A DNA stretch of 64,000 nt from Thermoleophilia bacterium (GTDB lineage: Bacteria; Actinomycetota; Thermoleophilia; Gaiellales; Gaiellaceae), in the NCBI GenBank assembly GCA_009694305.1, contig SHVL01000003.1:1508-65507 (forward strand). Reading direction: 5' to 3'. This document shows, one piece after another, positions 1-12,191 of the stretch (positions are counted from its first letter, which is position 1; every line of letters starts with the position of its first letter). A model generated the notes under the pieces. That model was not told the origin of the DNA and ran no database searches. It worked only from the letters and a program-made list of their open reading frames with translations. A program made the translations under genes and the position numbers.

Positions 1-257
1 GGAAGCGCGAGGAGGCCGCGGCCGAGCCCGAGGCACGTGAAGCAGATTTCGTGGAGGGGCTCTCGCCTGCCCTCCAGACTGCCCTCGCGACCCTCAGTGT
101 CGGCGAGCGCGAAGTTCTTGCTCTCCGGATCGTGATCGAGCTCGACGGCGACCAGACCGCCCGCGTGCTCGGGATCAGCCCGACCGCCGTTTCGACCCGG
201 CTCAGCCGGGCGCTCCACAAACTCGAAGAGAAGGTGAGGAACGATGACCTCCGCTGA
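1..257 (+). CDS. ECF-type sigma-70 factor, C-terminal fragment (5' end outside window)
   Basis: The reading frame is open from the window edge. The C-terminus LSVGEREVLALRIVIELDGDQTARVLGISPTAVSTRLSRALHKLEEKV looks like a sigma-70 region 4 helix-turn-helix. Confidence 0.75.
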   Translation, partial: KREEAAAEPEAREADFVEGLSPALQTALATLSVGEREVLALRIVIELDGDQTARVLGISPTAVSTRLSRALHKLEEKVRNDDLR

Positions 258-1308
258 GCTGATCACCGAGCTGCAGGCCACGAGGCCCGCTGCCGACGGC
301 GTGCTGCGGGACCGCGTCCGGGCGATCGCCGCCACCGAATCGGTACGGCGGCCGTCTCCCTTTGCCCGCCTTTCGCGCTACTCGCCACGACGATTCGCAC
401 TCGTCGTCCTCCCTGCGACAGCGGTTGTCCTTCTCGCCGTGGCCGGGATTGCAGGGCTGCTCGATTCGGGCTCGCAGCCGGGTGGGATCGAGGCGATCAA
501 CAGCGACTTCTCCTCGCGGAGCCCGGCCGTCCCGGGGAGCGCGGCCACGACCGCACAGGGGAAGATTGCTCCCAATCTCGAGAAGGGGGTAGCCGCTGCC
601 GATACCGCCGTACCCGCGCCGACATCGGGCCGGGCAGAGCGCTACTCCGCGCAGCTCACGCTCTCGGTGAACGACATCGACGCCCTCTCGGCTGCCACCC
701 AGCAGGCCCTGCGCATCACGCGCGACCTCGGCGGCTACCTCGTCACCGCTTCGTATGCGACAACCGACTCCGGCACGTCGTCCCTGACCTTGAAGGTGCC
801 GACAGCGAACGTGCAACAGGCGATCGTGCGACTCTCGGGTCTCGGCAAGATCGTGGCTCAGCAGGTGCAGATCTACGACCTGCAGGGACAGGTGGACGAG
901 CTGACGAAGCGGGAGAACGCTTTGCGTCTCCAGATCATCCGCCTGTCTGCGCGGCTCGCCACAACCGACCTCGACGCGGAGACCCGGGCCACGCTCGAAG
1001 TACGCCGCGCTGCAGCGAGTAGCGCACTTGCTCAGGTGCGGGGCGCGAGCGCCCAGGTCAACGCCGAGGCGCGCTTCGCGACGATCGCGCTGATGATGCA
1101 GACCACGCAGTCCTCCGCGGCGGTGCCCGTCCCGTCACGCTTCGACAACGCGTTCGGGCGTGCCGTCGAGATCCTTGCCGTCGAGGCGATGGTCGTCCTC
1201 TACGCTCTCGTGATCGTCGGCCCGCTGGCGCTCCTCGCGTTGCTCGGATGGCTCACGCGGCGCGCGCTCAGGCGCCATCAGGACGCGCAGTTGCTCTCGG
1301 CGCAGTAG
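244..1308 (+). CDS. Membrane protein coupled to the sigma factor (DUF4349-like, possible anti-sigma partner)
   Basis: The 354-aa ORF starts 14 nt inside the sigma gene. It has a TM segment (FALVVLPATAVVLLAVAGIAGLL), a Q/L/A-rich coiled-coil-like middle and a C-terminal hydrophobic pair. The family name is recalled from memory. Confidence 0.5.
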   Translation: MTSAELITELQATRPAADGVLRDRVRAIAATESVRRPSPFARLSRYSPRRFALVVLPATAVVLLAVAGIAGLLDSGSQPGGIEAINSDFSSRSPAVPGSAATTAQGKIAPNLEKGVAAADTAVPAPTSGRAERYSAQLTLSVNDIDALSAATQQALRITRDLGGYLVTASYATTDSGTSSLTLKVPTANVQQAIVRLSGLGKIVAQQVQIYDLQGQVDELTKRENALRLQIIRLSARLATTDLDAETRATLEVRRAAASSALAQVRGASAQVNAEARFATIALMMQTTQSSAAVPVPSRFDNAFGRAVEILAVEAMVVLYALVIVGPLALLALLGWLTRRALRRHQDAQLLSAQ

Positions 1309-1344
1309 AGAGCCGAGGGGCCTGCTCGGGCGCGTGGCCCCGCC

Positions 1345-1920
1345 CTACGGAGCTTTCACGTCGAACGTCGCGATCAATGCCTCCGCCACGACCTTGAGCG
1401 GCCGGCCCGAGATCTGGCTCGCTTTCCGCAGCCGTGCGAACGCATCCTGTTCGCTCAATCCTTCGCGCTTCATGAGCAAGCCCTTCGCCCGCTCGATCGC
1501 CTTGCGTGCGGCAAGCGCCTCGGTGAGCGAGTCGGCCTCCTCGCGGAGTGCCGCCAGCTCGTCGTGCCGGGCACGTGCAGTTGCAATCGCGGGGAGGAGA
1601 TCGGTCTCCCGAAACGGCTTCACGAGATAGCCGAAGACACCGGCCTCGACCGCCCGCGAGACGAGCTCCTGCTCACCATAGGCGGTCACCATCACGATCG
1701 GGATTGGGCGCTCCTCGAGGATGCGCCTCGCCGCCTCGATCCCGTCCAGTTTCGGCATTTTCACGTCGAGCAGAGCGAGATCGGGCTCGAGCGTGCGGGC
1801 AAGCATGACCGCCTCCTCTCCGTCCTTCGCCTCTGCGCACACGTCAAAACCGGCCTTCTCGAGCATCGCTCGCAGGTCGAGCCTGATGATCGTCTCGTCT
1901 TCAGCGATCAGGATGCGCAT
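1345..1920 (-). CDS. pdtaR: Response regulator with receiver plus ANTAR RNA-binding output domain (PdtaR-like)
   Basis: The N-terminal receiver reads MRILIAEDETIIRLDL...LLDVKMPKLDG...KP. The C-terminus AARKAIERAKGLLMKREGLSEQDAFARLRKASQISGRPLKVVAEALI is a typical ANTAR domain. Confidence 0.9.
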   Translation of the reverse strand: MRILIAEDETIIRLDLRAMLEKAGFDVCAEAKDGEEAVMLARTLEPDLALLDVKMPKLDGIEAARRILEERPIPIVMVTAYGEQELVSRAVEAGVFGYLVKPFRETDLLPAIATARARHDELAALREEADSLTEALAARKAIERAKGLLMKREGLSEQDAFARLRKASQISGRPLKVVAEALIATFDVKAP

Positions 1921-3340
1921 CGTCGTCCTTTCGCAGGCTTGCCGGGAACCGGACCTCGGCGTGCAGACCGTGGTCGTCTACGAGCGTCAGCTCTCCACCG
2001 AGCTCGTCACGCACGAGGGCGCGGACGATGGAGAGACCCGTACTGTCGGGCGCGGCCTGGATGCCGTCTCCGTCGTCGGCGATCGCAAGCACGACATCCC
2101 CGTCGCACCCCGTCAACGCGATCGAGATCGCCCCCCCGCCATGCTCGAGCGCATTACCGAACAGCTCGGTGAAGACGAGTGCGAGCGAGGTCGCCCGTTG
2201 GCCCGCGAGCGACAGTGGCTCGAGCGAGGAGCTGACGTCCTTTCCGACGACGAGCCCCTGCACGAGCATCGCGCGGAGCCGGTCGATCAGCTCGTCGAGA
2301 TCGACGTCGTCCTCCCGATGTTCGGTCAGTACCTCGTGGACGGCGGCAATCGCAAGAATCCGGTTGACCGAATCGCCGAGCGCCTTCTGGGGATCGACGT
2401 CCTCGGTACGAGCCTGCAGGCGCAGGAGCGACGCGACCGTCTGCAGGTTGTTCTTGACCCGGTGGTGGATCTCCTGAGCAAGCACCCCGCGCAGCGCCAT
2501 GCGGCCGTGTTCGAGAGCCACGGCAGCCTGGCTCGCAATCGCCTCGAGGAGCTGGCGGTCGTCGTCGGAGAACGGGATGTCGCGGTCAACGACGAGCTCC
2601 CCGATCGTGCGACCCCGCCAGCGCAGCGGCAGCCGCACTGCGTGCGTGCCGGCCCGCCCTTCCGGCCAGGCGATACGCCCGTCCTCGAGCACGATCGCGG
2701 CCCCGGTAGCGTTCATCGACTCGACCGTCGTCTGCACGATCGCCTCGAGCGACTCCTCGAGATAGAGCGACTCCGAGACGGCCTTCGAGATCCGGGCGAG
2801 CGCTTCGAGCTCGTGCACACGCCGTTGCGCCTGCGCGTAGAGCTGTGCATGCTCGATTGACTGTGCCACCTGCCCCGCAATCGTCATCAGCAGGCCGACC
2901 TCTGCCTGCGAGAAGGAACGCGGTTCACGTGTGCGGACGTTGAGCGCGCCCTCAAGCTTGTCCCGCGCCAGGATCGGGACGGCGAGGATCGATGCGTACT
3001 CGTCCTCGGGCAGGTTCGGGAACGACTTGAAGCGCGGATCGAGATGTGCGTCGGCGGCGATCATCACGGGAGCCCTGTCTGCGGCAGCCGCACCCGTGAT
3101 GCCTTCGCCGCGGCGCATCCGCGGGCTCGTCGTCGCATTCTCCACGCTCGTGCCGTGGGTCGCGCGCAGCACGAGCTCGTCGGTTCGCTCGTCGTAGAGG
3201 TAGACGTACGCGGAGTCGGTTTCGAGCGCTGCGGCTACCTCGTGCGCAATCGCCTCCATCACCTCCTGCAGGTCGAGCGAGGAGTTGACGACCTCGGTCG
3301 TGCGGGTGAGGAGCGCGAGGTGCCGGGCGGCGTCGTCCAC
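1901..3340 (-). CDS. pdtaS: GAF-domain sensor histidine kinase (HisKA_2 / PdtaS-like)
   Basis: It has N-terminal GAF-like repeats, the H-box EIHHRVKNNLQTVASLLRLQ and an HATPase region (FGNALEHG...DDGDGI). Its end overlaps the pdtaR start by 20 nt. The start codon is GTG. Confidence 0.85.
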   Translation of the reverse strand: MDDAARHLALLTRTTEVVNSSLDLQEVMEAIAHEVAAALETDSAYVYLYDERTDELVLRATHGTSVENATTSPRMRRGEGITGAAAADRAPVMIAADAHLDPRFKSFPNLPEDEYASILAVPILARDKLEGALNVRTREPRSFSQAEVGLLMTIAGQVAQSIEHAQLYAQAQRRVHELEALARISKAVSESLYLEESLEAIVQTTVESMNATGAAIVLEDGRIAWPEGRAGTHAVRLPLRWRGRTIGELVVDRDIPFSDDDRQLLEAIASQAAVALEHGRMALRGVLAQEIHHRVKNNLQTVASLLRLQARTEDVDPQKALGDSVNRILAIAAVHEVLTEHREDDVDLDELIDRLRAMLVQGLVVGKDVSSSLEPLSLAGQRATSLALVFTELFGNALEHGGGAISIALTGCDGDVVLAIADDGDGIQAAPDSTGLSIVRALVRDELGGELTLVDDHGLHAEVRFPASLRKDDDAHPDR

Positions 3341-3341
3341 G

Positions 3342-3815
3342 TCAGTCGAGATACGAGAGAGCGATCACGCCGAGGATCGGCACGGCAATCGTCAGCGAAA
3401 AGGTGAACCAGCCGACGATGATCAGCCGTCGCCGGGTCGCCGGAGCCCGAATGTCCTTCTCACGCGTCTCCCGCTGCAACCGTGGCCCGAGCTCGTAGTC
3501 GTGGATAAGCGCGCCGATGACGAGAAATACGACGAGCACGGACTTGACGATCAGCGTACGATCGAAGTCGGTAGAGAACGCAGCCGGGTCGAACGCTCCA
3601 TGGAGATGGGTGAGCCAGAGTCCCGAGAGGATTGCCACGCCCATCGCGCTCCACCCGAGCGGGCGCCAGCGGCGGCCGAGAGCCTTCAGCGCAACCGCAC
3701 GTGCCTCCCCCTCGAGTTTGCGGATCGCGGGGACGCCGACGAAGACGAGCACGATCGTGCCGCCGACCCAGACCGTGGCCGACATGAGATGGACGATGCG
3801 GAGAACGGTCAGCAT
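3342..3815 (-). CDS. Integral membrane protein, 4 predicted TM (CopD-like HLxxxxxWxGG N-terminus)
   Basis: The 157-aa hydrophobic ORF stops 1 nt before the kinase start, making it the first gene of the kinase/regulator operon. Its function is unknown. Confidence 0.5.
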   Translation of the reverse strand: MLTVLRIVHLMSATVWVGGTIVLVFVGVPAIRKLEGEARAVALKALGRRWRPLGWSAMGVAILSGLWLTHLHGAFDPAAFSTDFDRTLIVKSVLVVFLVIGALIHDYELGPRLQRETREKDIRAPATRRRLIIVGWFTFSLTIAVPILGVIALSYLD

Positions 3816-4014
3816 TGACGCAGGCTATCGACGCCGTTACCGGGTGAGAGCGAGATCGTGCCCTAACGACCACGGGCCCCTCATCGGGAACCCGCGATCG
3901 GCCGTCAGTCGCAAGCGAGCCACTCGCCTCGAAGCTCGGCTTGCACGTTCGATACTGCCCCTTTTCGCGCACGATGTCCAGTCGGATCGTTCGACATACC
4001 TGCCTGCGGACGAC

Positions 4015-5451
4015 CTACAGTGCGGCGAGGTAGCGGTCGAGCTCCCACTGCGACACCTGCATCCGGTACTCGTCCCACTCGGTCCGCTTGAGCTCGACAT
4101 ACCGTGGGAAGATGTGGTCGCCGAGCGCCTTCCGCATCAGCTCCGAGCCTGCGCACTCCTCGACGGCCTCTCCCAGCGAGCCCGGCAGCGCCTCGATGCT
4201 CTGCTCCTGGCGCTCCTCGTCGGTGAGCCGGTACAGGTTGGTCGTCATCTCGGGCGGCAGTACGTAGCCCTTCTCGATCCCCTCGAGGCCTGCATGCAGC
4301 AGGGCTGCGAAGGCGAGGTACGGGTTACAGGCCGGATCCGGGCAGCGAATCTCTGCCCGGGTTCCCTGCTCGGAGCCCGGCTTGTAGAGCGGGATCCTGA
4401 TCAGAGCCGTGCGGTTCCGCTGCGACCACGCCACGTACACCGGCGCCTCGTAGCCCGGCACGAGCCGCTTGTAGGAGTTGACCCATTGGGCCAGCACGGC
4501 CGACAACTCGCGGGCATGGATGAGGATTCCTGCGATGAACGACTTCGCCGTGTCGGACAGGTGGTTCGGGTCATTCGCGTCGAAGAACCTGTTGCGGCCA
4601 CCCTTGAACAGCGACATGTGCGTGTGCATCCCCGAGCCGTTCTCGCCAAACAGCGGCTTCGGCATGAAGGTGGCGTAGTAGCCGTGCCACGCGGCGACTT
4701 CCTTGACGACGATCCGGTAGGTCATCGTCTTGTCGGCCATCGAGAGCGCGTTGTCGTACCGCATGTCGATCTCGTGCTGGGACGGGGCGACCTCGTGATG
4801 GTGATACTCGATCTGGATCCCGACCGACTCGAGGGCGGTGATCGTGTCGTTGCGTACCTCGGTGGCCGCGTCCTGCACGGTCATCGCGAAGTAGCCACCC
4901 TCGTCGATCGTCTCGGTTCCCTTGTCGTTCTCGAACAGGAAGTACTCGAGCTCCGGCCCGACGTTGAACGTGTCGAAGCCCATCTTCTTCATCCGCTCGA
5001 GAGCGAGCTTGAGGATGTAGCGCGGGTCACCCTCGTAGGGTGTGCCGTCGGGCTTGACGATGTCGCAGATCATCCGCCCGACCTTTGCGCCCAGCTCGTG
5101 CCCGTGGTTGTCTACCGGGCGCGGCATGATCTCGAACGTCAGCGGGTCGGGGATCGCGACCATGTCCGACTCCTCGATCCGGTTGAACCCGGTAATCGAC
5201 GAGCCGTCGAAGCCCATCCCGTCGTCGAGTGCTCCCGCCATCTCGTTGGGCGTGATCGCGAACGACTTGAGGTGGCCCTCGATGTCGGTGAACCAGAAGA
5301 GGACGTGCTCGACACCCTCGTCCTTGATCCGCTTCAACACAGCGCGGCGCGCGGTGAAGCTCGATGTTGCCCTGTCCTTGCTCGTCACCTGCGCCGGTCG
5401 CTTCGCCGGTCGCTTCGCCGGTGCTGCGGCAGTGGTTCGTGGTCGCGCCAT
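4015..5451 (-). CDS. glnA: Glutamine synthetase type I with about 40-aa basic N-terminal extension
   Basis: GS motifs are present: FWFTDIEGHLKSF, NGSGMHTHMSLF and NRTALIRIP. I chose the ATG at 5451 because the SD GGGAGGAG (5458-5465) lies 6 nt upstream. The 591-aa track ORF extends further but lacks coding character. Confidence 0.9.
   Translation of the reverse strand: MARPRTTAAAPAKRPAKRPAQVTSKDRATSSFTARRAVLKRIKDEGVEHVLFWFTDIEGHLKSFAITPNEMAGALDDGMGFDGSSITGFNRIEESDMVAIPDPLTFEIMPRPVDNHGHELGAKVGRMICDIVKPDGTPYEGDPRYILKLALERMKKMGFDTFNVGPELEYFLFENDKGTETIDEGGYFAMTVQDAATEVRNDTITALESVGIQIEYHHHEVAPSQHEIDMRYDNALSMADKTMTYRIVVKEVAAWHGYYATFMPKPLFGENGSGMHTHMSLFKGGRNRFFDANDPNHLSDTAKSFIAGILIHARELSAVLAQWVNSYKRLVPGYEAPVYVAWSQRNRTALIRIPLYKPGSEQGTRAEIRCPDPACNPYLAFAALLHAGLEGIEKGYVLPPEMTTNLYRLTDEERQEQSIEALPGSLGEAVEECAGSELMRKALGDHIFPRYVELKRTEWDEYRMQVSQWELDRYLAAL
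5399..5422. repeat. Perfect 12-bp tandem duplication (cgcttcgccggt x2) inside the glnA 5' end
   Basis: Read directly from the sequence. It encodes AKRP-AKRP in the N-terminal extension. Confidence 0.9.
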
Positions 5452-5474
5452 TTCTTGCTCCTCCCGTAAGAACG

Positions 5475-5507
5475 AAAAAAGCCCCAGGCGCAAACAGCGC
5501 CTGAGGC
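5475..5507 (-). terminator. Intrinsic-terminator-like hairpin in the glnA 5' leader
   Basis: The minus strand reads GCCTCAGGCGC-TGTTT-GCGCCTGGGGC followed by TTTTTT. The stem is 11 bp including one G.U pair. It lies about 25 nt upstream of the glnA ATG, and there is no upstream same-strand gene for it to terminate. Confidence 0.7.
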
Positions 5508-5518
5508 TCCATTGCCTC
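5503..5518 (-). promoter_or_regulatory. Hexaloop hairpin overlapping the glnA leader terminator (ANTAR-substrate-like)
   Basis: The minus strand reads GAGGC-AATGGA-GCCTC. The loop has A at position 1 and G at position 4. The 3' arm is the first 5 nt of the terminator 5' arm. Confidence 0.35.
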
Positions 5519-5683
5519 GAAATCGACACACGTAGGATAGCAGGGCAGAGCGGCGGCTGCGGCGCTCCCGTTACCGCACCGCCGGAATCCCCTCGGCCGA
5601 CGCCGGACTCGACCTGCTTGCGGGACACGCCGGGCTCGGCTACGCTGTGATCTCCGGAGGGGACGACGAAGGCTTCTCCGTGT

Positions 5684-5695
5684 GGCAACGATGCC
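5684..5695 (+). promoter_or_regulatory. Hexaloop hairpin overlapping the P-II leader terminator (ANTAR-substrate-like)
   Basis: The plus strand reads GGC-AACGAT-GCC, with loop A1 and G4. The 3' arm begins the terminator 5' arm. The stem is only 3 bp. Confidence 0.3.
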
Positions 5696-5730
5696 TCAGT
5701 GCTCTCTGCGAGCCCTGGGGCTTTTTGTTG
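5693..5730 (+). terminator. Intrinsic-terminator-like hairpin in the P-II/amt 5' leader
   Basis: The plus strand reads GCCTCAG-T-GCTC-TCTGC-GAGC-C-CTGGGGC followed by TTTTTGTTG. It is followed by the SD GAGGAGG (5738-5744) and the ATG at 5753. Confidence 0.65.
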
Positions 5731-5752
5731 CTCCAACGAGGAGGCCGGGCAG

Positions 5753-6058
5753 ATGATGAAAGTCGAAGCGGTGGTTGTTCGCGACCGCATCGAGACGGTG
5801 ATCGAGGCAGTGGGTCACGGACGCGAGAAAGGGATTACCCACGAGTACCGGGGTCGCGTGTTCGAGTCGCGCTTCCTGCCGAAGGCTCTGATGACCTTCG
5901 TCGTTCCCGCTGGGATTGTGGACGGCGTGATTGACGCCATCGTGGATGCTGCGCGCACCGGCCGCGCGAGTGGAGACGGCATCTGCTGGGCTTCTCCTGT
6001 AGGCCGCGTGACCCACAACCGAACAGGAGCAAGGCTGGGCGAGGTGGGCGAGGTATGA
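5753..6058 (+). CDS. P-II (GlnB/GlnK) family-like protein, shortened (101 aa)
   Basis: The sequence reads MKVEAVV..., GHGREKGITHEYRG, FLPK and GDGICW...RTG, which parallels the canonical P-II order. About 14 residues corresponding to strand beta2 are absent. Its stop overlaps the amt ATG (ATGA). Confidence 0.6.
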   Translation: MMKVEAVVVRDRIETVIEAVGHGREKGITHEYRGRVFESRFLPKALMTFVVPAGIVDGVIDAIVDAARTGRASGDGICWASPVGRVTHNRTGARLGEVGEV

Positions 6059-7381
6059 CCGTCAAGGAGCTGGGATTCGCAGCGAGCACGATCTGGGTCG
6101 TCCTCGCGGCCATCCTCGTGATCTTCATGCAGGCGGGGTTCGCGCTCCTCGAGGCGGGCCTGACCCGGATGAAGAACGTCGGTCACATAGCGGCGAAGAA
6201 CGTCCTCATCCTCGCCATCGTCTCGATCGTCTACTACCTCGTCGGCTTTGGAATCGCTTTCGGCGACGGGGGCAACGGCTTCGCCGGTGGCTCCGGCTCC
6301 TTCCCGTCGGTCGATGATCTCCTCTCGATCGGCCAGGCTCCGTTCTCGTGGTTCAGCGCCATCCCCGGTGCGGCGGGCTACCTGTTCGAGGTGGCCTTCG
6401 CCGCCGTCTCGCTTACGATCGTCTGGGGCGCTATGGCAGAACGGACAAAGCTCTGGGTCTACTTCGCGTTCGGCGCCGTCTTCACGCTGATCTATTCCCT
6501 CGTCTCGCACTGGATCTGGAGCCCCGAGGGGTGGCTGTTCTCGCGGGGATGCAGGACTTCGCCGGCTCGACCGTCGTCCACTATCAGGGCGCACCCGCAG
6601 GACTCGCAGGGGCGATCCTGCTCGGGCCGAGGCTCGGAGTTCGGCTCCGACGGCAAGCCCAACACGATCCCGGGGCACAACATGGCGTTCACGACGCTCG
6701 GCGTGCTGATCCTCTGGTTCGGCTGGTTCGGCTGGTTCGGCTTCAGCCCGGGCTCGACGCTCTCGGTTGACTTCGGCGGCGTCGGCTTCTTCGCCTACGT
6801 GGCGTTGAACACGAACCTCGCCGCGGCGGCCGGTGTGCTCGGTGCGGTCGTCACGTCGTGGATCGTCGTCAAGAAGCCCGACCTCTCGATGATGCTGAAC
6901 GGCGCCGTGGGCCGCAATCGTGATCGGGTTCGCCTCGGGAATCGTCGTCGTCGGCTCGCTCTTCGTCGAGAAGATCGGGATCGACGATCCGGTCGGGGCG
7001 ATCGCGGCTCACGGCATGTCGGGTGTCCGGGGCACGCTTTCGCTCGGGTTCCTGGCGGTGCCGAAGCTGGCAGACAAGCTCGCGACGGGCAAGGGTGGCC
7101 TGTTCTACGGCGGCGGCTTCCACCAACTCGGGACCCAGGCCGTCGGCCTCCTCGCGGTCGGCGCGTTCACGTTCACGCTTTCGTTCGGCATCCTGCTGCT
7201 CTTCAAGGTGACGGTCGGGATCAGGACGGATCCGGAGCACGAGCAGATGGGCCTCGACGTCTCCGAGCACGGCATGTGGGGCTGTCCCGAGTTCTACATC
7301 CCCGTACCGGGTGGCTACGGCACCGAGCATGGACACCTCGTGACACAGCAGGTCAGAGTCCCGGCGGCCGGTCTCGAGTAG
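6055..7381 (+). pseudogene. amt: Ammonium transporter (Amt) gene with multiple frame disruptions
   Basis: Amt homology starts in frame 1 (to about 6548). It moves to frame 3 (MQDFAGSTVVHYQGAPAGLAGAILLGPRLG, 6549-6638), returns to frame 1 (FGSDGKPNTIPGHNMAF...WFGWFGWFGF...MLNGAVG), then moves to frame 2 from about 6902 (APWAAIVIGFASG...DDPVGAIAAHGMSG...) until the stop at 7381. Confidence 0.7.
6714..6740. repeat. Three perfect tandem copies of ctggttcgg inside amt
   Basis: Read directly from the sequence. It encodes WFG-WFG-WFG where the Amt signature normally has WFGWFGF, so there is one extra unit. Confidence 0.85.
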
Positions 7382-7410
7382 GCCGCCGGGACGCTCTCTT
7401 CGACTCGTTT

Positions 7411-8109
7411 CTAGACGAGCGCGAACGTGACGGTGATCGCCGCCCTCGTCTCCTGCGTTCCCGGCTCGACCGGGGTGCCGATGTCGGAGACGGCCGACTT
7501 CTCGTACATCGGTACGGGAGCGGAGCCGCCGCCCTCGATCACCGACGTTACCCTGCCGAGCGACCGGCCCGACGCGGTGGCGAGGACTTCAGCGGACTCA
7601 CGTGCGTCCGCGACAGCTTCCTTCAGGGCCTCGCGGTAGAGCTTCCCCTGGTCGGCAAAGCCGAGAGTGGGGCCATTCACCTGGTTGGCACCCGCCTCGA
7701 CAGCGGCGTCGATCACCGCGCCTACCCGGTCGAGATCGATCGTTGCCGAGACGGTGTTCGACGCGGCGAATCCCGCGGGCTCGTTGTTCGGGCCGAGCAC
7801 CTGCGAAAGCGACACCGACTGTGTGGCTACGCGCCTGCCGCCTGCTGCCTTGACTGCAACGATCACGAGTCGCATCTCGCGTGCGTTAGCCGCGAGCGCC
7901 GTGCGGGCCGTCGCGGCTCGGGAGTCCACGCCGAACGAGAACACGGCAGTCGTCGGTACAACCGACACGGAGCCGTTGCCGGCGACGGTGATCGAGTCTC
8001 CTGCTTGCGGCGCACCGTCCACGGCGTGCGCGCCCTCGGGACGGGCAACGCCGCCAATGGCAGCAACGAGAACAACGAGCAGGACGGCGGCAAGGGCAAG
8101 GCGTTTCAT
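7411..8109 (-). CDS. SIMPL/DUF541-family secreted protein
   Basis: It has a signal-like N-terminus (MKRLALAAVLLVVLVAAIGG). The overall pattern (ITVAGNGSVSVVP..., GPTLGFADQGKLYREALKEAVADARESAEVLA) matches what I recall of the 26-kDa periplasmic immunogenic protein family. Confidence 0.7.
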   Translation of the reverse strand: MKRLALAAVLLVVLVAAIGGVARPEGAHAVDGAPQAGDSITVAGNGSVSVVPTTAVFSFGVDSRAATARTALAANAREMRLVIVAVKAAGGRRVATQSVSLSQVLGPNNEPAGFAASNTVSATIDLDRVGAVIDAAVEAGANQVNGPTLGFADQGKLYREALKEAVADARESAEVLATASGRSLGRVTSVIEGGGSAPVPMYEKSAVSDIGTPVEPGTQETRAAITVTFALV

Positions 8110-8504
8110 TATTCTCCTTCAGATATCGTGGTGGTGGCGGTGTCCACACAGTCAGGCGTTTCCGGGGCGCACGCGCCGAGCAACGTCGGGGGCTCGGTTC
8201 CCGTTTCGGGTTCCACGGGTTTGCCCTCGCTCTGTGTGGGCGTCTCGGGTGTGTCGTCGCAGTTGGTTCCGACCAGGCAACTGTCTGCGGCCCCCCCTCC
8301 CTGCGCGTCAGGATCGCCGGTCACGTCTCCGTCCTGCCCGCCGATCCGGGCGAGGCAGTTCGGGTCGTCGGCACGGCACTTGAGTAGGCCGATGGGCGGT
8401 ACTCCGGCCTTCGGTGTGTCGTCGTCTCCTGTGGTCGCTGCGTAGGCTCCGAAGCCTGCCGCGATGGCGATCACGAGGATCGCTCCGAGAGCTACACGTT
8501 TCAT
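8109..8504 (-). CDS. Small secreted Cys/Asp/Thr-rich protein, unknown function
   Basis: I chose the start at MKRVALGAILVIAIAAGFGAYA (signal/TM). The mature part has 6 Cys and acidic low-complexity sequence. Its stop abuts the downstream SIMPL gene start. Confidence 0.45.
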   Translation of the reverse strand: MKRVALGAILVIAIAAGFGAYAATTGDDDTPKAGVPPIGLLKCRADDPNCLARIGGQDGDVTGDPDAQGGGAADSCLVGTNCDDTPETPTQSEGKPVEPETGTEPPTLLGACAPETPDCVDTATTTISEGE

Positions 8505-8651
8505 GGATCTCCGCTGGCTGTCAGGAGTGCCCATGTCCCTTCTACGCCGCTGCCCCCGGCCCACGTCACAGCCGCCCGCACCGCAGGGCACAGACCTCGC
8601 AAGAAGGGTGCGAGCCGGCCTTTGCAGGCCCGCTGGCGGGCCTCTTCAGGA

Positions 8652-9887
8652 TTACGTGAAGCGTGCCCGCGCCTCGGCGAGTGCGTTGCGCACGCCACCG
8701 GGGCCGGGTGCACCTCGTGCGGCGATGCTCTCTGCAGCCGTCCCGGTCGGGACGAACGAGCCGTCACGCACACGCGCAGCGACCTGCTCGTGGGCCTCAC
8801 GGAACGGGACTTCTTCGCGGACGAGTGCTTCGGCGGCATCCGTCGCGAGCACGAGCGGGTCGGACGCAGCGAGGGCCATCCGCTCTCGATCGACCTCGAG
8901 GCCGGCAGTCAAGGCGGCGAGGGCCTGCAGTCCTAGGCGCGTGTCGAGGCGTGCGGCAAACACGGGGGCCTTGTCCTCCTGCAGATCGCGGTCATAGGCA
9001 AGGGGGAGGCCCTTCACCGTGGCGAGCAGACCGGTCAGCCTGCCGATCGCCGTTCCGGCCTTGCCGCGCGCGAGCTCGGCGACATCGGGATTCAGCTTCT
9101 GCGGCATCATCGACGAGCCCGTCGCCGCGTTCTCGGGCAGCTTCACGAAGCCGAACTCAGCGGACGACCAGAGCACGATCTCCTCGCCGACCCGAGACAG
9201 GTGCGTGTACAGGACAGCCACCGCGTACAGGTAATCGAGCGCGAAGTCGCGGTCGGCAACGGCGTCGATCGAGTTCCGCATCTGGCCGGGTGCACCGGGC
9301 AGGCCGAGCGTCGAACCGGCGAGCGCGCCCGCACCGAGAGGGCTCTCGGCGGCAGCGGTGGCGGCGGAGGCAAAGCGCGAGCGGTCGCGGTCGAGCATCT
9401 CGACCCAGGCGAGGAGATGGTGGCCGAGCGTGACCGGTTGACCGCGCTGGAGATGGGTGTACCCCGGTAGGAGCGTGTCGGCCTCGGCCTCTGCGACGGA
9501 GAGCACGACCAGGGCGAACGCGCCGATCTCCTTGCTCGCCTCGGCACACGCGTCGAGCACGTAGAGCCGAAACGCCGCCGCGACCTGGTCGTTGCGTGAC
9601 CTGCCGGCATGGATCTTGCGCCCGAGGTCACCGAGCTGCCGCTCGATTGCGCTGTGCACGTCTTCGTCCTCGGCGAGATATCCAGCCGGGTCATGGGCGA
9701 TCTCGGCGAGTCGCGTTCGTGCATCGGCAAGCTCCGTGTCCGAGAGAAGTCCCGCACCGTGAAGCCGTTGCGCGTGCTGGACGCTTGCTTCGCAGTCGTA
9801 CGGGAGCAGCTCTGCATCCTCGGCATGTAGGAACGCCCATACCGCGGGATCGAGGGAGCCGCCGACGCGGCCAGACCAGAGCGTCAT
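8652..9887 (-). CDS. argH: Argininosuccinate lyase
   Basis: It has the fumarate-lyase signature GSSMMPQKLNPD plus SRNDQV and TLLPGYTHLQRGQPVT. At 411 aa it is on the short side. Confidence 0.9.
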   Translation of the reverse strand: MTLWSGRVGGSLDPAVWAFLHAEDAELLPYDCEASVQHAQRLHGAGLLSDTELADARTRLAEIAHDPAGYLAEDEDVHSAIERQLGDLGRKIHAGRSRNDQVAAAFRLYVLDACAEASKEIGAFALVVLSVAEAEADTLLPGYTHLQRGQPVTLGHHLLAWVEMLDRDRSRFASAATAAAESPLGAGALAGSTLGLPGAPGQMRNSIDAVADRDFALDYLYAVAVLYTHLSRVGEEIVLWSSAEFGFVKLPENAATGSSMMPQKLNPDVAELARGKAGTAIGRLTGLLATVKGLPLAYDRDLQEDKAPVFAARLDTRLGLQALAALTAGLEVDRERMALAASDPLVLATDAAEALVREEVPFREAHEQVAARVRDGSFVPTGTAAESIAARGAPGPGGVRNALAEARARFT

Positions 9888-10354
9888 TCTGTCTCTCCGT
9901 CGGCGAGATACGCAGCGAGAGCTGCCTCCAGCTCGTGGGCTGTTGTCCCGTCCCTTGCTGCAACGAAGATCGTGTTGTCGCCTGCAAGCGTGCCGGCGAT
10001 GGAGGGATGACCGCCTTCGTCGATCGACTGCGCGAGGGCGCTCGCGTAGCCGGAGGGGGTCGTGACGATCACGAGACCACCGGTTGCCGCCTCGACGCCC
10101 GTGGCGTATCGCCGCATCGCGACACCGATTGCGCGGAGCCGGTCGAGGTCGCTGCTGCCGGATGTCGCGTAGACGAGCCTGCCGCTCGGAGCACGCACCT
10201 TGACGAGCCCCATCTCGGCGATATCGCGGGAAACACTCGTCTGCACGACGTCGTGCCCCTCGTCCCGCAGGGCCTGGACGAGCTCGGCCTGAGTGGAGAT
10301 CGCTCCGTCACGGACGAGCCGGAGGATCGCTGCCTGGCGGTCGCGGCGGTTCAC
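9884..10354 (-). CDS. argR: Arginine repressor
   Basis: The winged-helix N-terminus reads RQAAILRLVRDGAISTQAELVQALRDEGHDVVQTSVSRDIAEMGLVK. The C-terminal oligomerisation domain contains GTLAGDNTIFV. The GTG start overlaps the argD stop (GTGA). The 512-aa track ORF is a GC artefact. Confidence 0.85.
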   Translation of the reverse strand: MNRRDRQAAILRLVRDGAISTQAELVQALRDEGHDVVQTSVSRDIAEMGLVKVRAPSGRLVYATSGSSDLDRLRAIGVAMRRYATGVEAATGGLVIVTTPSGYASALAQSIDEGGHPSIAGTLAGDNTIFVAARDGTTAHELEAALAAYLADGETE

Positions 10355-11526
10355 GAGGCGAGCACGCCTTCGATGATCCGGAGTGCCTGCGCAACCTCGT
10401 CCGCGCTGACGACGAGTGGCGGAGTCAGACGCAGCACGTCCGGGCCCGCCGAGAGAACGAGCAGCCCCTGGCCACGACAGGCATCGACGACCGGGCCGAC
10501 GGGCCGGTCGAGCTCTGCGCCGAGGAGCAGGCCGCGACCTCGCACCGAGCGCACACCGGGCAGCACCTCGAGGCCGGTGGCGAGTTGCGTGCCGCGCTCC
10601 GTAACCTGTGCGAGTAGATCGCCGTCGATCGCCTCGACGACCGCGCACGCTGCGGCAGCGACGACGGGGTTGCCGCCAAACGTCGAGCCGTGATCGCCGG
10701 GCACGAACCCCGGGGCGGCCCGCTCGCCTGCGAGAAGTGCTCCCATCGGCAGGCCGTTGGCAAGACCCTTCGCGAGGGTCACGAGATCGGGGCGGATCCC
10801 GAGTGGCTCGTAGGCGAAGAACGTCCCCGTGCGTCCCATCCCTGCCTGCACCTCGTCGAGACAGAGGAGCGCCCCGACCTCGAGCGCAAGCTCGGACGCG
10901 GCCTGTGCGAAGGCGGGCTCGAGCGGGATCACACCACCTTCTCCGAGAATGGGCTCGAGAAGGAGCAGCGCCGTGTCGGACGCAGGTGCGAGGGCGGCCT
11001 CGAGGGACTCGATGTCGTTTGGCCGGGCGAAGGAGACTCCGGGGACGAGCGGCCCGAACCCCTCCCACTTCGAGGGCTGTCCCGTGGCCGAGAGCGCGCC
11101 GAGCGTCCGCCCGTGGAAGCCGCCGTCGAGCGCCACGATCCGCGTCCTGCCCGTGGCCTTGCGGGCAATCTTGATCGCCGCCTCGTTTGCCTCGGCACCG
11201 GAGTTGCAGAAGAACGCCTTCCCGCCCTCGAACCGCTCCCCGAGAAGTGTCGCGAGTCGGAGCATCGGCTCCGTCCAGTACAGGTTCGATGCGTGCCAGA
11301 GTCGGTCGAGTTGCTCCCGCGCCGCCGCGAGCGGCCCCGGCGCACAATGGCCTAGACCAACAACGGCGATCCCTGCGACGAAATCGAGATAGGCGCGACC
11401 CGTGTCGTCCCACACCTGGCATCCTTCCCCGCGCACGACGGTGATGTCGGCTCGCGCGTAGGTCGGAAGCACCGACGCGCGCGCTGCTGACAACGACTCC
11501 GGGGCGGAGATATGAAGGGGTGTCAT
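10351..11526 (-). CDS. argD: Acetylornithine aminotransferase
   Basis: This is a class-III aminotransferase with motifs FCNSGAEANEAAIK, LDEVQAGMGRTG and TLAKGLANGLP. It sits within the arg operon. Confidence 0.9.
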   Translation of the reverse strand: MTPLHISAPESLSAARASVLPTYARADITVVRGEGCQVWDDTGRAYLDFVAGIAVVGLGHCAPGPLAAAREQLDRLWHASNLYWTEPMLRLATLLGERFEGGKAFFCNSGAEANEAAIKIARKATGRTRIVALDGGFHGRTLGALSATGQPSKWEGFGPLVPGVSFARPNDIESLEAALAPASDTALLLLEPILGEGGVIPLEPAFAQAASELALEVGALLCLDEVQAGMGRTGTFFAYEPLGIRPDLVTLAKGLANGLPMGALLAGERAAPGFVPGDHGSTFGGNPVVAAAACAVVEAIDGDLLAQVTERGTQLATGLEVLPGVRSVRGRGLLLGAELDRPVGPVVDACRGQGLLVLSAGPDVLRLTPPLVVSADEVAQALRIIEGVLAS

Positions 11527-12191
11527 GCGGTCACCTCGGTGGCCCCGATCGCGGCGTGGACGCCACCGCGCGTTGCAATGATCGCCGCCTCGAGCTTCGG
11601 GACGATCCCACCCTCGAACGTTCCGTCGCCGAGCATCCGTTCGGCAGCGTCGGCGTCGAGGTGCTCCACGACCGCGCCGTCGAGCAAGACCCCGGGCACG
11701 TCACTGAGAAAGACGATTCGCTCGGCACCGAGACCAACCGCAAGAGCCGCTGCCGCCTCGTCGGCGTTGACGTTGAGCGGTCCTTCTGCGAGCGCTGCGA
11801 CGACAGGGATGAGCCCGGCGGCGAGGGCCTCCTCGATCGCAGACGGAGCGGAGGGGACGGGTTGACCGACGAGCCCGAGCTCCTCGAGTCGGTGCGCCTG
11901 CAGCCCGATCTCGTCGCCAAAGAGCGACACCGCAGCGGGGCCGATCGCGGCACAGACCTCGCTGTTCACCTCTGCGAACGCGAGACGGACGACATCGAGC
12001 ACCTCTGTGGTCGTCACGCGCCGCCCGTGGACGAAGGTGGGGGTGATCCCCCGGCGCTCCATCTCGGCGGTGATCTGCGGTCCCGCTCCGTGAACGACGA
12101 CGACGTCGTGGCCGGCCGCCCGCAACGCGAACGCCTCGGTCGCGGCGGTCGCGGCAACCCTGCCACCGAGCTTCAGCACGATTCTGCTCAT
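11523..12191 (-). CDS. argB: Acetylglutamate kinase (short form, 222 aa)
   Basis: It has amino-acid kinase motifs (VLKLGG, VVVHGAGPQI, NVNADEAAAALA) and lies between argJ and argD with ATGA overlaps. Confidence 0.8.
   Translation of the reverse strand: MSRIVLKLGGRVAATAATEAFALRAAGHDVVVVHGAGPQITAEMERRGITPTFVHGRRVTTTEVLDVVRLAFAEVNSEVCAAIGPAAVSLFGDEIGLQAHRLEELGLVGQPVPSAPSAIEEALAAGLIPVVAALAEGPLNVNADEAAAALAVGLGAERIVFLSDVPGVLLDGAVVEHLDADAAERMLGDGTFEGGIVPKLEAAIIATRGGVHAAIGATEVTA

Follow-up and report, generated by a model that had tools for sequence, protein, structure and literature searches.

The window analysed here, a stretch of 64,000 nucleotides (nt) from contig SHVL01000003.1 of a Thermoleophilia bacterium in the Gaiellales, an abundant, barely cultivated and little-studied order of soil actinobacteria, raises the question of what a sensor kinase and its partner regulator are doing beside the gene for glutamine synthetase. 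Directly 3' of glnA and, like it, on the minus strand lie genes for a small membrane protein, a GAF-domain histidine kinase and a REC-ANTAR response regulator of the PdtaR type, a type which in Actinomycetes is an orphan of debated function; this operon had been proposed in a first-pass annotation and its make-up is confirmed by Pfam. We consider it likely, on the strength of comparative sequence analysis, that the operon encodes a two-component antiterminator for ANTAR-type attenuators in the leader of glnA and in that of a P-II/amt operon, which lies on the plus strand and is divergent from glnA. The same annotation had suggested the regulator as antiterminator for both leaders, and the comparative tests described below all come out in favour of that suggestion. 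The class of mechanism has been known since 2010-2012 and what is reported here is probable ANTAR attenuation of nitrogen genes in the Gaiellales. Three of its traits are unusual, namely that the PdtaR-like regulator is linked to glnA, that the GAF domain of the kinase is of the PtsP type, and that the glnA leader has a single hexaloop hairpin.

Each of the two leaders contains a short hexaloop hairpin, P2, whose 3' arm doubles as the opening portion of an intrinsic terminator's 5' arm. In the glnA leader (minus strand) P2 is GAGGC-AAUGGA-GCCUC at 5503-5518, which has an invariant core and folds with -7.3 kcal/mol, and the terminator (5475-5510) consists of a stem of 13-14 base pairs (bp) and a U6 tract at 5480-5475, with a folding energy of -27.0 kcal/mol (z -6.1). 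In the P-II leader (plus strand) P2 is GGC-AACGAU-GCC at 5684-5695 (-3.5 kcal/mol) and the terminator (5693-5726) has its stem at 5693-5721 and a U5 tract at 5722-5726 (-18.7 kcal/mol, z -3.1). For both terminators no or few shuffled sequences are equally stable. Both hairpins sit exactly where the first-pass annotation had put them, and the sharing of an arm between hairpin and terminator that it described is seen in both leaders.

The closest public loci are in metagenome-assembled genomes titled Gaiellaceae, Gaiellales or Thermoleophilia, and the regions upstream of glnA and of the P-II gene in relatives have in common an invariant GGC-RAYGNN-GCC followed by a terminator that ends in GGGGC-U4-6. 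The P2 core is invariant in all 74 aligned leaders (37 and 37), and in two sets of 37 the terminator stems covary strongly. As glnA and the P-II/amt operon are 3-5 kb apart in most relatives, the two leaders are independent units there and provide independent sequences. The P2 stem itself, being invariant, is uninformative on pairing, an invariance that fits an element read by a protein. A G at loop position 4 is found in 36/36 P2 loops and in 18 of 19 loops of a second, upstream hairpin (P1), the single exception being a misaligned loop of 11 nt. At loop position 1 the window has A in each P2 hairpin and G in P1, and across the relatives this position is either A or G.

The first-pass annotation had found no upstream hairpin in the P-II leader, and in this it was mistaken: a P1 hairpin is present at 5656-5679 (plus strand), with a stem of 9 bp (5656-5664/5671-5679) that shows compensatory changes in relatives and the hexaloop GACGAA at 5665-5670, and it ends 4 nt 5' of P2. 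It was probably missed because its loop begins with G. The P-II-type leaders of relatives also have P1 4-10 nt 5' of P2, its stem measuring ~9 bp and its hexaloop reading G-N-N-G-N-N in most cases. Among 20 such leaders both partners vary in eight of the nine P1 pairs. Of the cells in the 12 pairs counted for P1 and P2 together, 90.7% are paired compared with 75% after shuffling, with none of 500 shuffles reaching the observed score; if the register is slid, pairing drops to 37-54%. In 19 further leaders, from other genera and not used in the model, pairing of P1 reaches 92.5%, the value for shuffled sequences being 63% (at most 71% in 1000 shuffles), a comparison that is biased towards structure since the alignment was fitted to the model. 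These alignment-based counts are more trustworthy than those of a simple P1 detector, which looked for 4 bp or more of unbroken stem adjoining the loop and so misses several true P1 hairpins with a mismatch at that place. Upstream of P1 a predicted -10 element of the P-II/amt operon, TACGCT, is at 5641-5646 (plus strand), with TAnnnT conserved.

For scans of whole genomes a covariance model of the P2 hairpin and terminator (R1) was used. In the genome from which the window comes, an assembly of 2.47 Mb with 67% GC, only the two leaders match (E 1e-10 and 2e-8), an outcome beyond chance, and neither exact-pattern nor covariance-model scans of this genome found a regulon member beyond them; the next match, on contig C68 at E 0.3, was dismissed as GC-rich and apparently coding sequence. 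Across the order 151 genomes were counted, among them one unpublished genome (G084) on which no particular conclusion depends, and the motif was found in 99: 45/45 in family f1, 6/37 in f2, 12/14 in f3, 0/9 in f4 and 35/45 in f5. Elsewhere in the class, 125 genomes belonging to other orders were scanned and gave no match.

Phylogenetic profiling of this kind had been proposed in the first-pass annotation, and it shows that all 99 motif-positive genomes have an ANTAR regulator. The motif without an ANTAR protein, a combination which that annotation had named as telling against its suggestion, was looked for among the 151 genomes and no case was found: 11 of the 12 genomes without an ANTAR match are also without the motif, and the twelfth (G061) keeps the locus of leader, glnA, kinase and regulator, in which the end of the contig truncates the regulator gene at residue 147. 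In at least 55 genomes the motif is on the same contig as an ANTAR match and 3-10 kb from it. The gene order glnA-membrane-kinase-regulator is kept throughout the genus, and the order glnA-kinase-regulator is kept in the second family, f5, where the membrane gene is absent; with the leader included, the order is conserved in both f1 and f5. Members of the genus that have only one ANTAR gene (G041, G024 and G132) keep the motif, with one or two copies in several such genomes. In two relatives (L076 and L174) a two-hairpin leader is found directly 5' of the regulator gene. A related arrangement is present in L178 (1454-2627), where the genes 3' of a leader are a receiver gene standing alone and, after it, a complete REC-ANTAR gene, an arrangement that suggests an autoregulated pair of tandem paralogues; the same pair of REC and REC-ANTAR genes occurs in L179 (1396-2456), with a leader match at 6899-6993, ~4.4 kb from the pair.

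The regulator (1345-1920, minus strand, 191 aa) has a receiver domain (Pfam Response_reg, PF00072, 3e-29) in which a comparison of 12 orthologues shows no variation at E7/D8, D52, T79 and K101, D52 being aligned with the phospho-acceptor Asp of both Rv1626 and EutV. Its ANTAR domain (PF03861, 8e-20) scores 70.8 bits, the gathering cut-off being 27.3. The nearest solved structures, aligned over the full length, are Rv1626 (1s8n, 2.9e-48) and EutV (6wsh, 2e-35), and Phe161 is at the position of EutV Tyr164, the residue that stacks on loop G4; Rv1626 likewise has Phe here. The kinase (1901-3340, minus strand, 479 aa) has the Pfam architecture GAF-GAF-HisKA_2-HATPase, its gene overlapping that of the regulator by 20 nt, and the H-box EIHHRVKNNLQ, N-box and G1 box are all found. 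It is probably cytoplasmic, as a reading of its translation by eye noticed no hydrophobic segment. Its first, N-terminal GAF domain is closest to that of EI-Ntr, with E 3e-25 to the PtsP model and matches to the structures 3ci6 and 3trc, and it also resembles the GAF domain of NifA. EI-Ntr's GAF domain binds glutamine, which inhibits autophosphorylation, and this likeness suggests by analogy that the kinase may sense glutamine and be active under nitrogen limitation.

Put together, these observations lead to the following model. By default each leader would fold into its strong terminator and transcription would stop before the gene. When nitrogen status calls for it, the likely signal being for example low glutamine perceived through the PtsP/NifA-type GAF domain, the active cytoplasmic kinase would phosphorylate the REC-ANTAR regulator, which would then dimerise and bind the hexaloop hairpin or hairpins. 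With P2 occupying the initial 3-5 nt of the terminator's 5' arm, the stem proximal to the U-tract could not form and RNA polymerase would read through into the gene. The operon itself probably has its own promoter and a leaderless transcript, as predicted from the hexamer TAGCCT (3822-3827, minus strand), a -10-like element 6 nt 5' of the ATG of the membrane gene, which is found 6-8 nt 5' of that start codon in most relatives, with no Shine-Dalgarno sequence. In addition no terminator-like site was found in the interval between glnA and the operon, so read-through from glnA could add to its transcription as positive feedback. The model offers a concrete and testable account of nitrogen control in the Gaiellales and would connect a regulator of the PdtaR kind with defined target RNAs and with a metabolite as plausible signal.

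The genes found 3' of motif matches in relatives are type-I glnA, glnII, a glutamine-synthetase-like gene, the P-II gene, amt, a GNAT-type acetyltransferase gene and the gene of the regulator itself, and the predicted regulon is a coherent nitrogen-assimilation set. Two-hairpin leaders are found 5' of glnII in larger relatives (L033:8096-8191, L043:6867-6960, L153, L154, L156, L158 and L160), 5' of the glutamine-synthetase-like gene (L149-L151, L159 and L163), and 5' of amt (L169 and L175) and of the GNAT acetyltransferase gene (L176). The small genome of the window retains just two of these leader units.

Several observations weigh against the antiterminator model. The loop of P1 has G at position 1 where the canonical residue is A, the glnA leader is without the P1 hairpin that antitermination by EutV and NasR required, and the promoter positions are predictions. 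The related genomes are non-independent observations, and 41 genomes with ANTAR proteins, mostly of family f2, have no detectable motif, which means that the regulator is able to occur where these targets are absent. Genus g5 contains seven motif-negative genomes that keep other ANTAR proteins and are without the orthologue of this regulator; these genomes are without the whole module of leader, glnA, kinase and regulator, which means that a single gain or loss event explains them, that co-occurrence is in part mere physical linkage, and that the value of the g5 contrast as an independent test of co-occurrence is weakened. Finally, a second ANTAR fragment in the same genome, on contig C30 and 82% identical to the regulator, could share or take its role. 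With regard to g5, in three of the genomes without the motif (L180-L182) the best glutamine synthetase is just 47-49% identical to the leader-linked glnA product of sister genomes, so within one genus the module is present or absent as a unit.

The glnA leader is where the antiterminator model meets its best-surviving alternative, namely that only the two-hairpin leaders (that of P-II/amt here, and elsewhere those of glnII, amt and the regulator gene) respond to the ANTAR regulator, whilst the glnA leader is constitutive or otherwise controlled and its stronger P2 (-7.3 kcal/mol) sets a basal level of read-through. The caveat of the first-pass annotation that a second hairpin is missing does hold for this leader, and the absence is a conserved trait: the window has no P1 here, the predicted extended -10 of glnA (TGCTATCCT, 5534-5542, minus strand, TGnTAnnnT at a fixed distance in relatives) ending 17 nt before P2, and sequence 5' of this element is not conserved among relatives. 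Of 31 distinct leaders of type-I glnA, 29 have a conserved (TG)nTAnnnT -10 that ends just 13-21 nt before P2, which leaves no room for P1, whereas in all other gene classes 30-37 nt separate the end of the -10 from P2 and P1 lies in this interval. A two-hairpin model (R2) gives 40-86 bits for two-hairpin leaders and 20-30 bits for glnA leaders of family f1, with the exception of one same-genus glnA leader (L148) at 42.9 bits. These -10 positions were inferred from conserved TAnnnT elements, which look sigma-70-like, in place of a scan for sigma-70 consensus promoters, which found nothing. The weak upstream candidate at 5562-5577 that the first-pass annotation had offered for glnA was rejected, as it folds with only -2.3 kcal/mol (z -0.3, no better than shuffles), is not conserved in relatives and is 5' of the conserved -10 (TATCCT, 5539-5534), so that it is probably not transcribed with the leader.

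An unresponsive glnA leader would agree both with this lack of room and with the requirement for P1 and its spacing in antitermination by EutV and NasR, and also with a P2 stem of 5-6 bp in glnA leaders compared with 3 bp in two-hairpin leaders. We nevertheless regard it as rather unlikely. The P2 of glnA keeps the invariant GGC-RAYGNN-GCC across many genera, which would be unexpected if the loop were not read by a protein, and isolated single hexaloops are bound by EutV; moreover glnA is the very gene that is physically linked to the regulator, and the orthologous glnA leader of family f5 does carry P1. If the antiterminator model holds for glnA also, its attenuator, which is conserved without P1 in at least 29 distinct leaders of the family, may be a natural single-hexaloop ANTAR antiterminator that works under a constraint on transcription time, with the PdtaR-type regulator as master switch of nitrogen assimilation driven by a glutamine-sensing PtsP-type GAF kinase. 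This bolder proposal is possible and we hold it only tentatively; antitermination through a single hexaloop was raised by Walshe 2022 (PMC8934654) and thought unlikely for attenuators. Were it true, a PdtaR that acts as nitrogen switch would hint at an ancestral role of PdtaR. The leaders described here are in any case a large natural set of single- and dual-hexaloop attenuators with one regulator, and could serve to test the 'successive binding' model of ANTAR antitermination.

A different ANTAR protein might also be the real or a redundant antiterminator, the paralogue on C30 in this genome or one of the 2-5 ANTAR genes in relatives, leaving the glnA-linked pair to act on other targets. The 82% identity of the second ANTAR domain would allow for this, many relatives do have several ANTAR genes, and mycobacterial PdtaR is reported to act on other mRNAs (10.1101/660928). 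It would seem decidedly improbable, however, given that the motif is kept by the three same-genus genomes in which only one ANTAR gene is present, that the seven g5 genomes with other ANTAR proteins and without this orthologue are also without the motif, and that the gene order with glnA is conserved. The fragment itself (C30:2-292, L001) comprises the C-terminal 96 aa of an ANTAR regulator that the edge of the contig truncates, faces a convergent gene of the methylmalonyl-CoA-mutase-like kind, and could represent either a paralogue or a co-binned strain. The leaders might also be under non-ANTAR control, by a small-molecule riboswitch, a small RNA or another RNA-binding protein, with the two-component genes nearby by coincidence, and in favour of this an Rfam scan of positions 1-12000 of the window (E up to 10) gave no match in them. 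We regard it as very improbable indeed. The glnA leader measures only ~50-60 nt from its predicted start to the U-tract and is too small for a known riboswitch aptamer, the hexaloop is its sole conserved unpaired element, and ANTAR is indicated by the architecture, by co-occurrence and linkage, and by the identity with the GnfR site.

A known system close to the proposed antiterminator in its targets is GnfK/GnfR of Geobacter, also a histidine kinase and a REC-ANTAR regulator that act at intrinsic terminators in the leaders of nitrogen genes (glnK and amtB among them). GnfR was shown to bind CAGGCAANGGCGCC overlapping the terminators in glnK, amtB and nif leaders (Ueki & Lovley 2010, PMC2995071), and gnfK/gnfR deletions led to premature termination in Geobacter sulfurreducens (PMC2995071). 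The window has GGCAAYGNNGCC, with the same core and the same overlap with the terminator; the core GGCAANG..GCC is present in both leaders of the window, and CAGGCAANGGCGCC is found letter for letter in P-II leaders of relatives, for example L039. The two systems differ in that GnfK is sensor-less and the gnfK gene lies apart from gnfR, sigma-54 and GnfLM controlling the two of them, whereas here a kinase with two GAF domains is encoded in one operon with its regulator beside glnA, the predicted -10 elements (TAnnnT) are sigma-70-like and glnA itself is a predicted target. In several phyla, genes for P-II, amt and glutamine/glutamate synthase had already been predicted to have ANTAR motifs upstream (Ramesh 2012, PMC3369931), and the predicted regulon here corresponds to this set.

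ANTAR targets have been defined by two hexaloops, P1 and P2, a critical G at loop position 4 and overlap of P2 with the terminator (Ramesh 2012, Stewart 2012, Walshe 2022), a definition drawn up for EutV, NasR and AmiR that the two-hairpin leaders here match. EutW/EutV of Enterococcus faecalis shares with the window these G4 hexaloops, the overlap and the REC-ANTAR regulator (E 2e-35 to 6wsh). It differs in that loop position 1 is here A or G (in P1 mostly G), that P2 is the only hexaloop hairpin of the glnA leader, and that Phe replaces the Tyr that stacks on G4; its regulon and signal concern ethanolamine as opposed to nitrogen assimilation. NasR, NasS-NasT and AmiC-AmiR are likewise ANTAR antiterminators of nitrogen-related operons with a P1/P2 leader before the terminator, but they take their input via NIT, NasS or AmiC partners with no histidine kinase, and their targets are nitrate assimilation or amidase genes.

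By protein the closest comparison is with PdtaS/PdtaR (Rv3220c/Rv1626), Rv1626 being the closest solved relative of the regulator and PdtaS also a cytoplasmic kinase with a HisKA_2 core; the regulator is ~50% identical to PdtaR-type proteins of Actinomycetes. Unlike the genes of the window PdtaS and PdtaR are unlinked orphans, and none of 67 loci in Actinomycetes has glnA or this kinase within 6 kb. The GAF-PAS sensor of PdtaS is unmatched in the kinase of the window, with no match to PdtaS sensor structures even at E up to 1, and the best GAF matches are of the PtsP type. Mycobacterial ANTAR proteins are reported to repress the translation of select transcripts (10.1101/660928), as opposed to the antitermination of nitrogen genes proposed here.

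The first gene of the operon (3342-3815, minus strand) encodes an integral membrane protein of 157 aa from the CopD/DUF2269 family (Pfam CopD 2.5e-11 and DUF2269; the C-terminal half of CopD in NCBIfam) and is separated from the kinase gene by 1 nt. On the plus strand, the first gene under the P-II leader (5753-6058) encodes a P-II-like protein of 101 aa with a partial Pfam match (P-II, 4e-9) that covers profile positions 29-101 only; the proteins of relatives have ~113 aa, so ~12 residues are missing here. It is followed by an open reading frame of 796 aa related to ammonium transporters (6055-8445, plus strand), in which Pfam Ammonium_transp matches in two stretches, in the N-terminal part only, and whose tblastn matches to relatives are broken into pieces; the amt gene of the window may be decaying though its leader is intact. 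Lastly glnA itself (4015-5451, minus strand) encodes a type I glutamine synthetase of 478 aa (Pfam Gln-synt_N/C, with Gln-synt_C at 9e-132, and TIGR00653 GlnA above cut-off) that has, here (5399-5451) and in the translations of relatives, a basic N-terminal extension rich in Arg, Lys, Pro and Ala ahead of the usual beta-grasp start.

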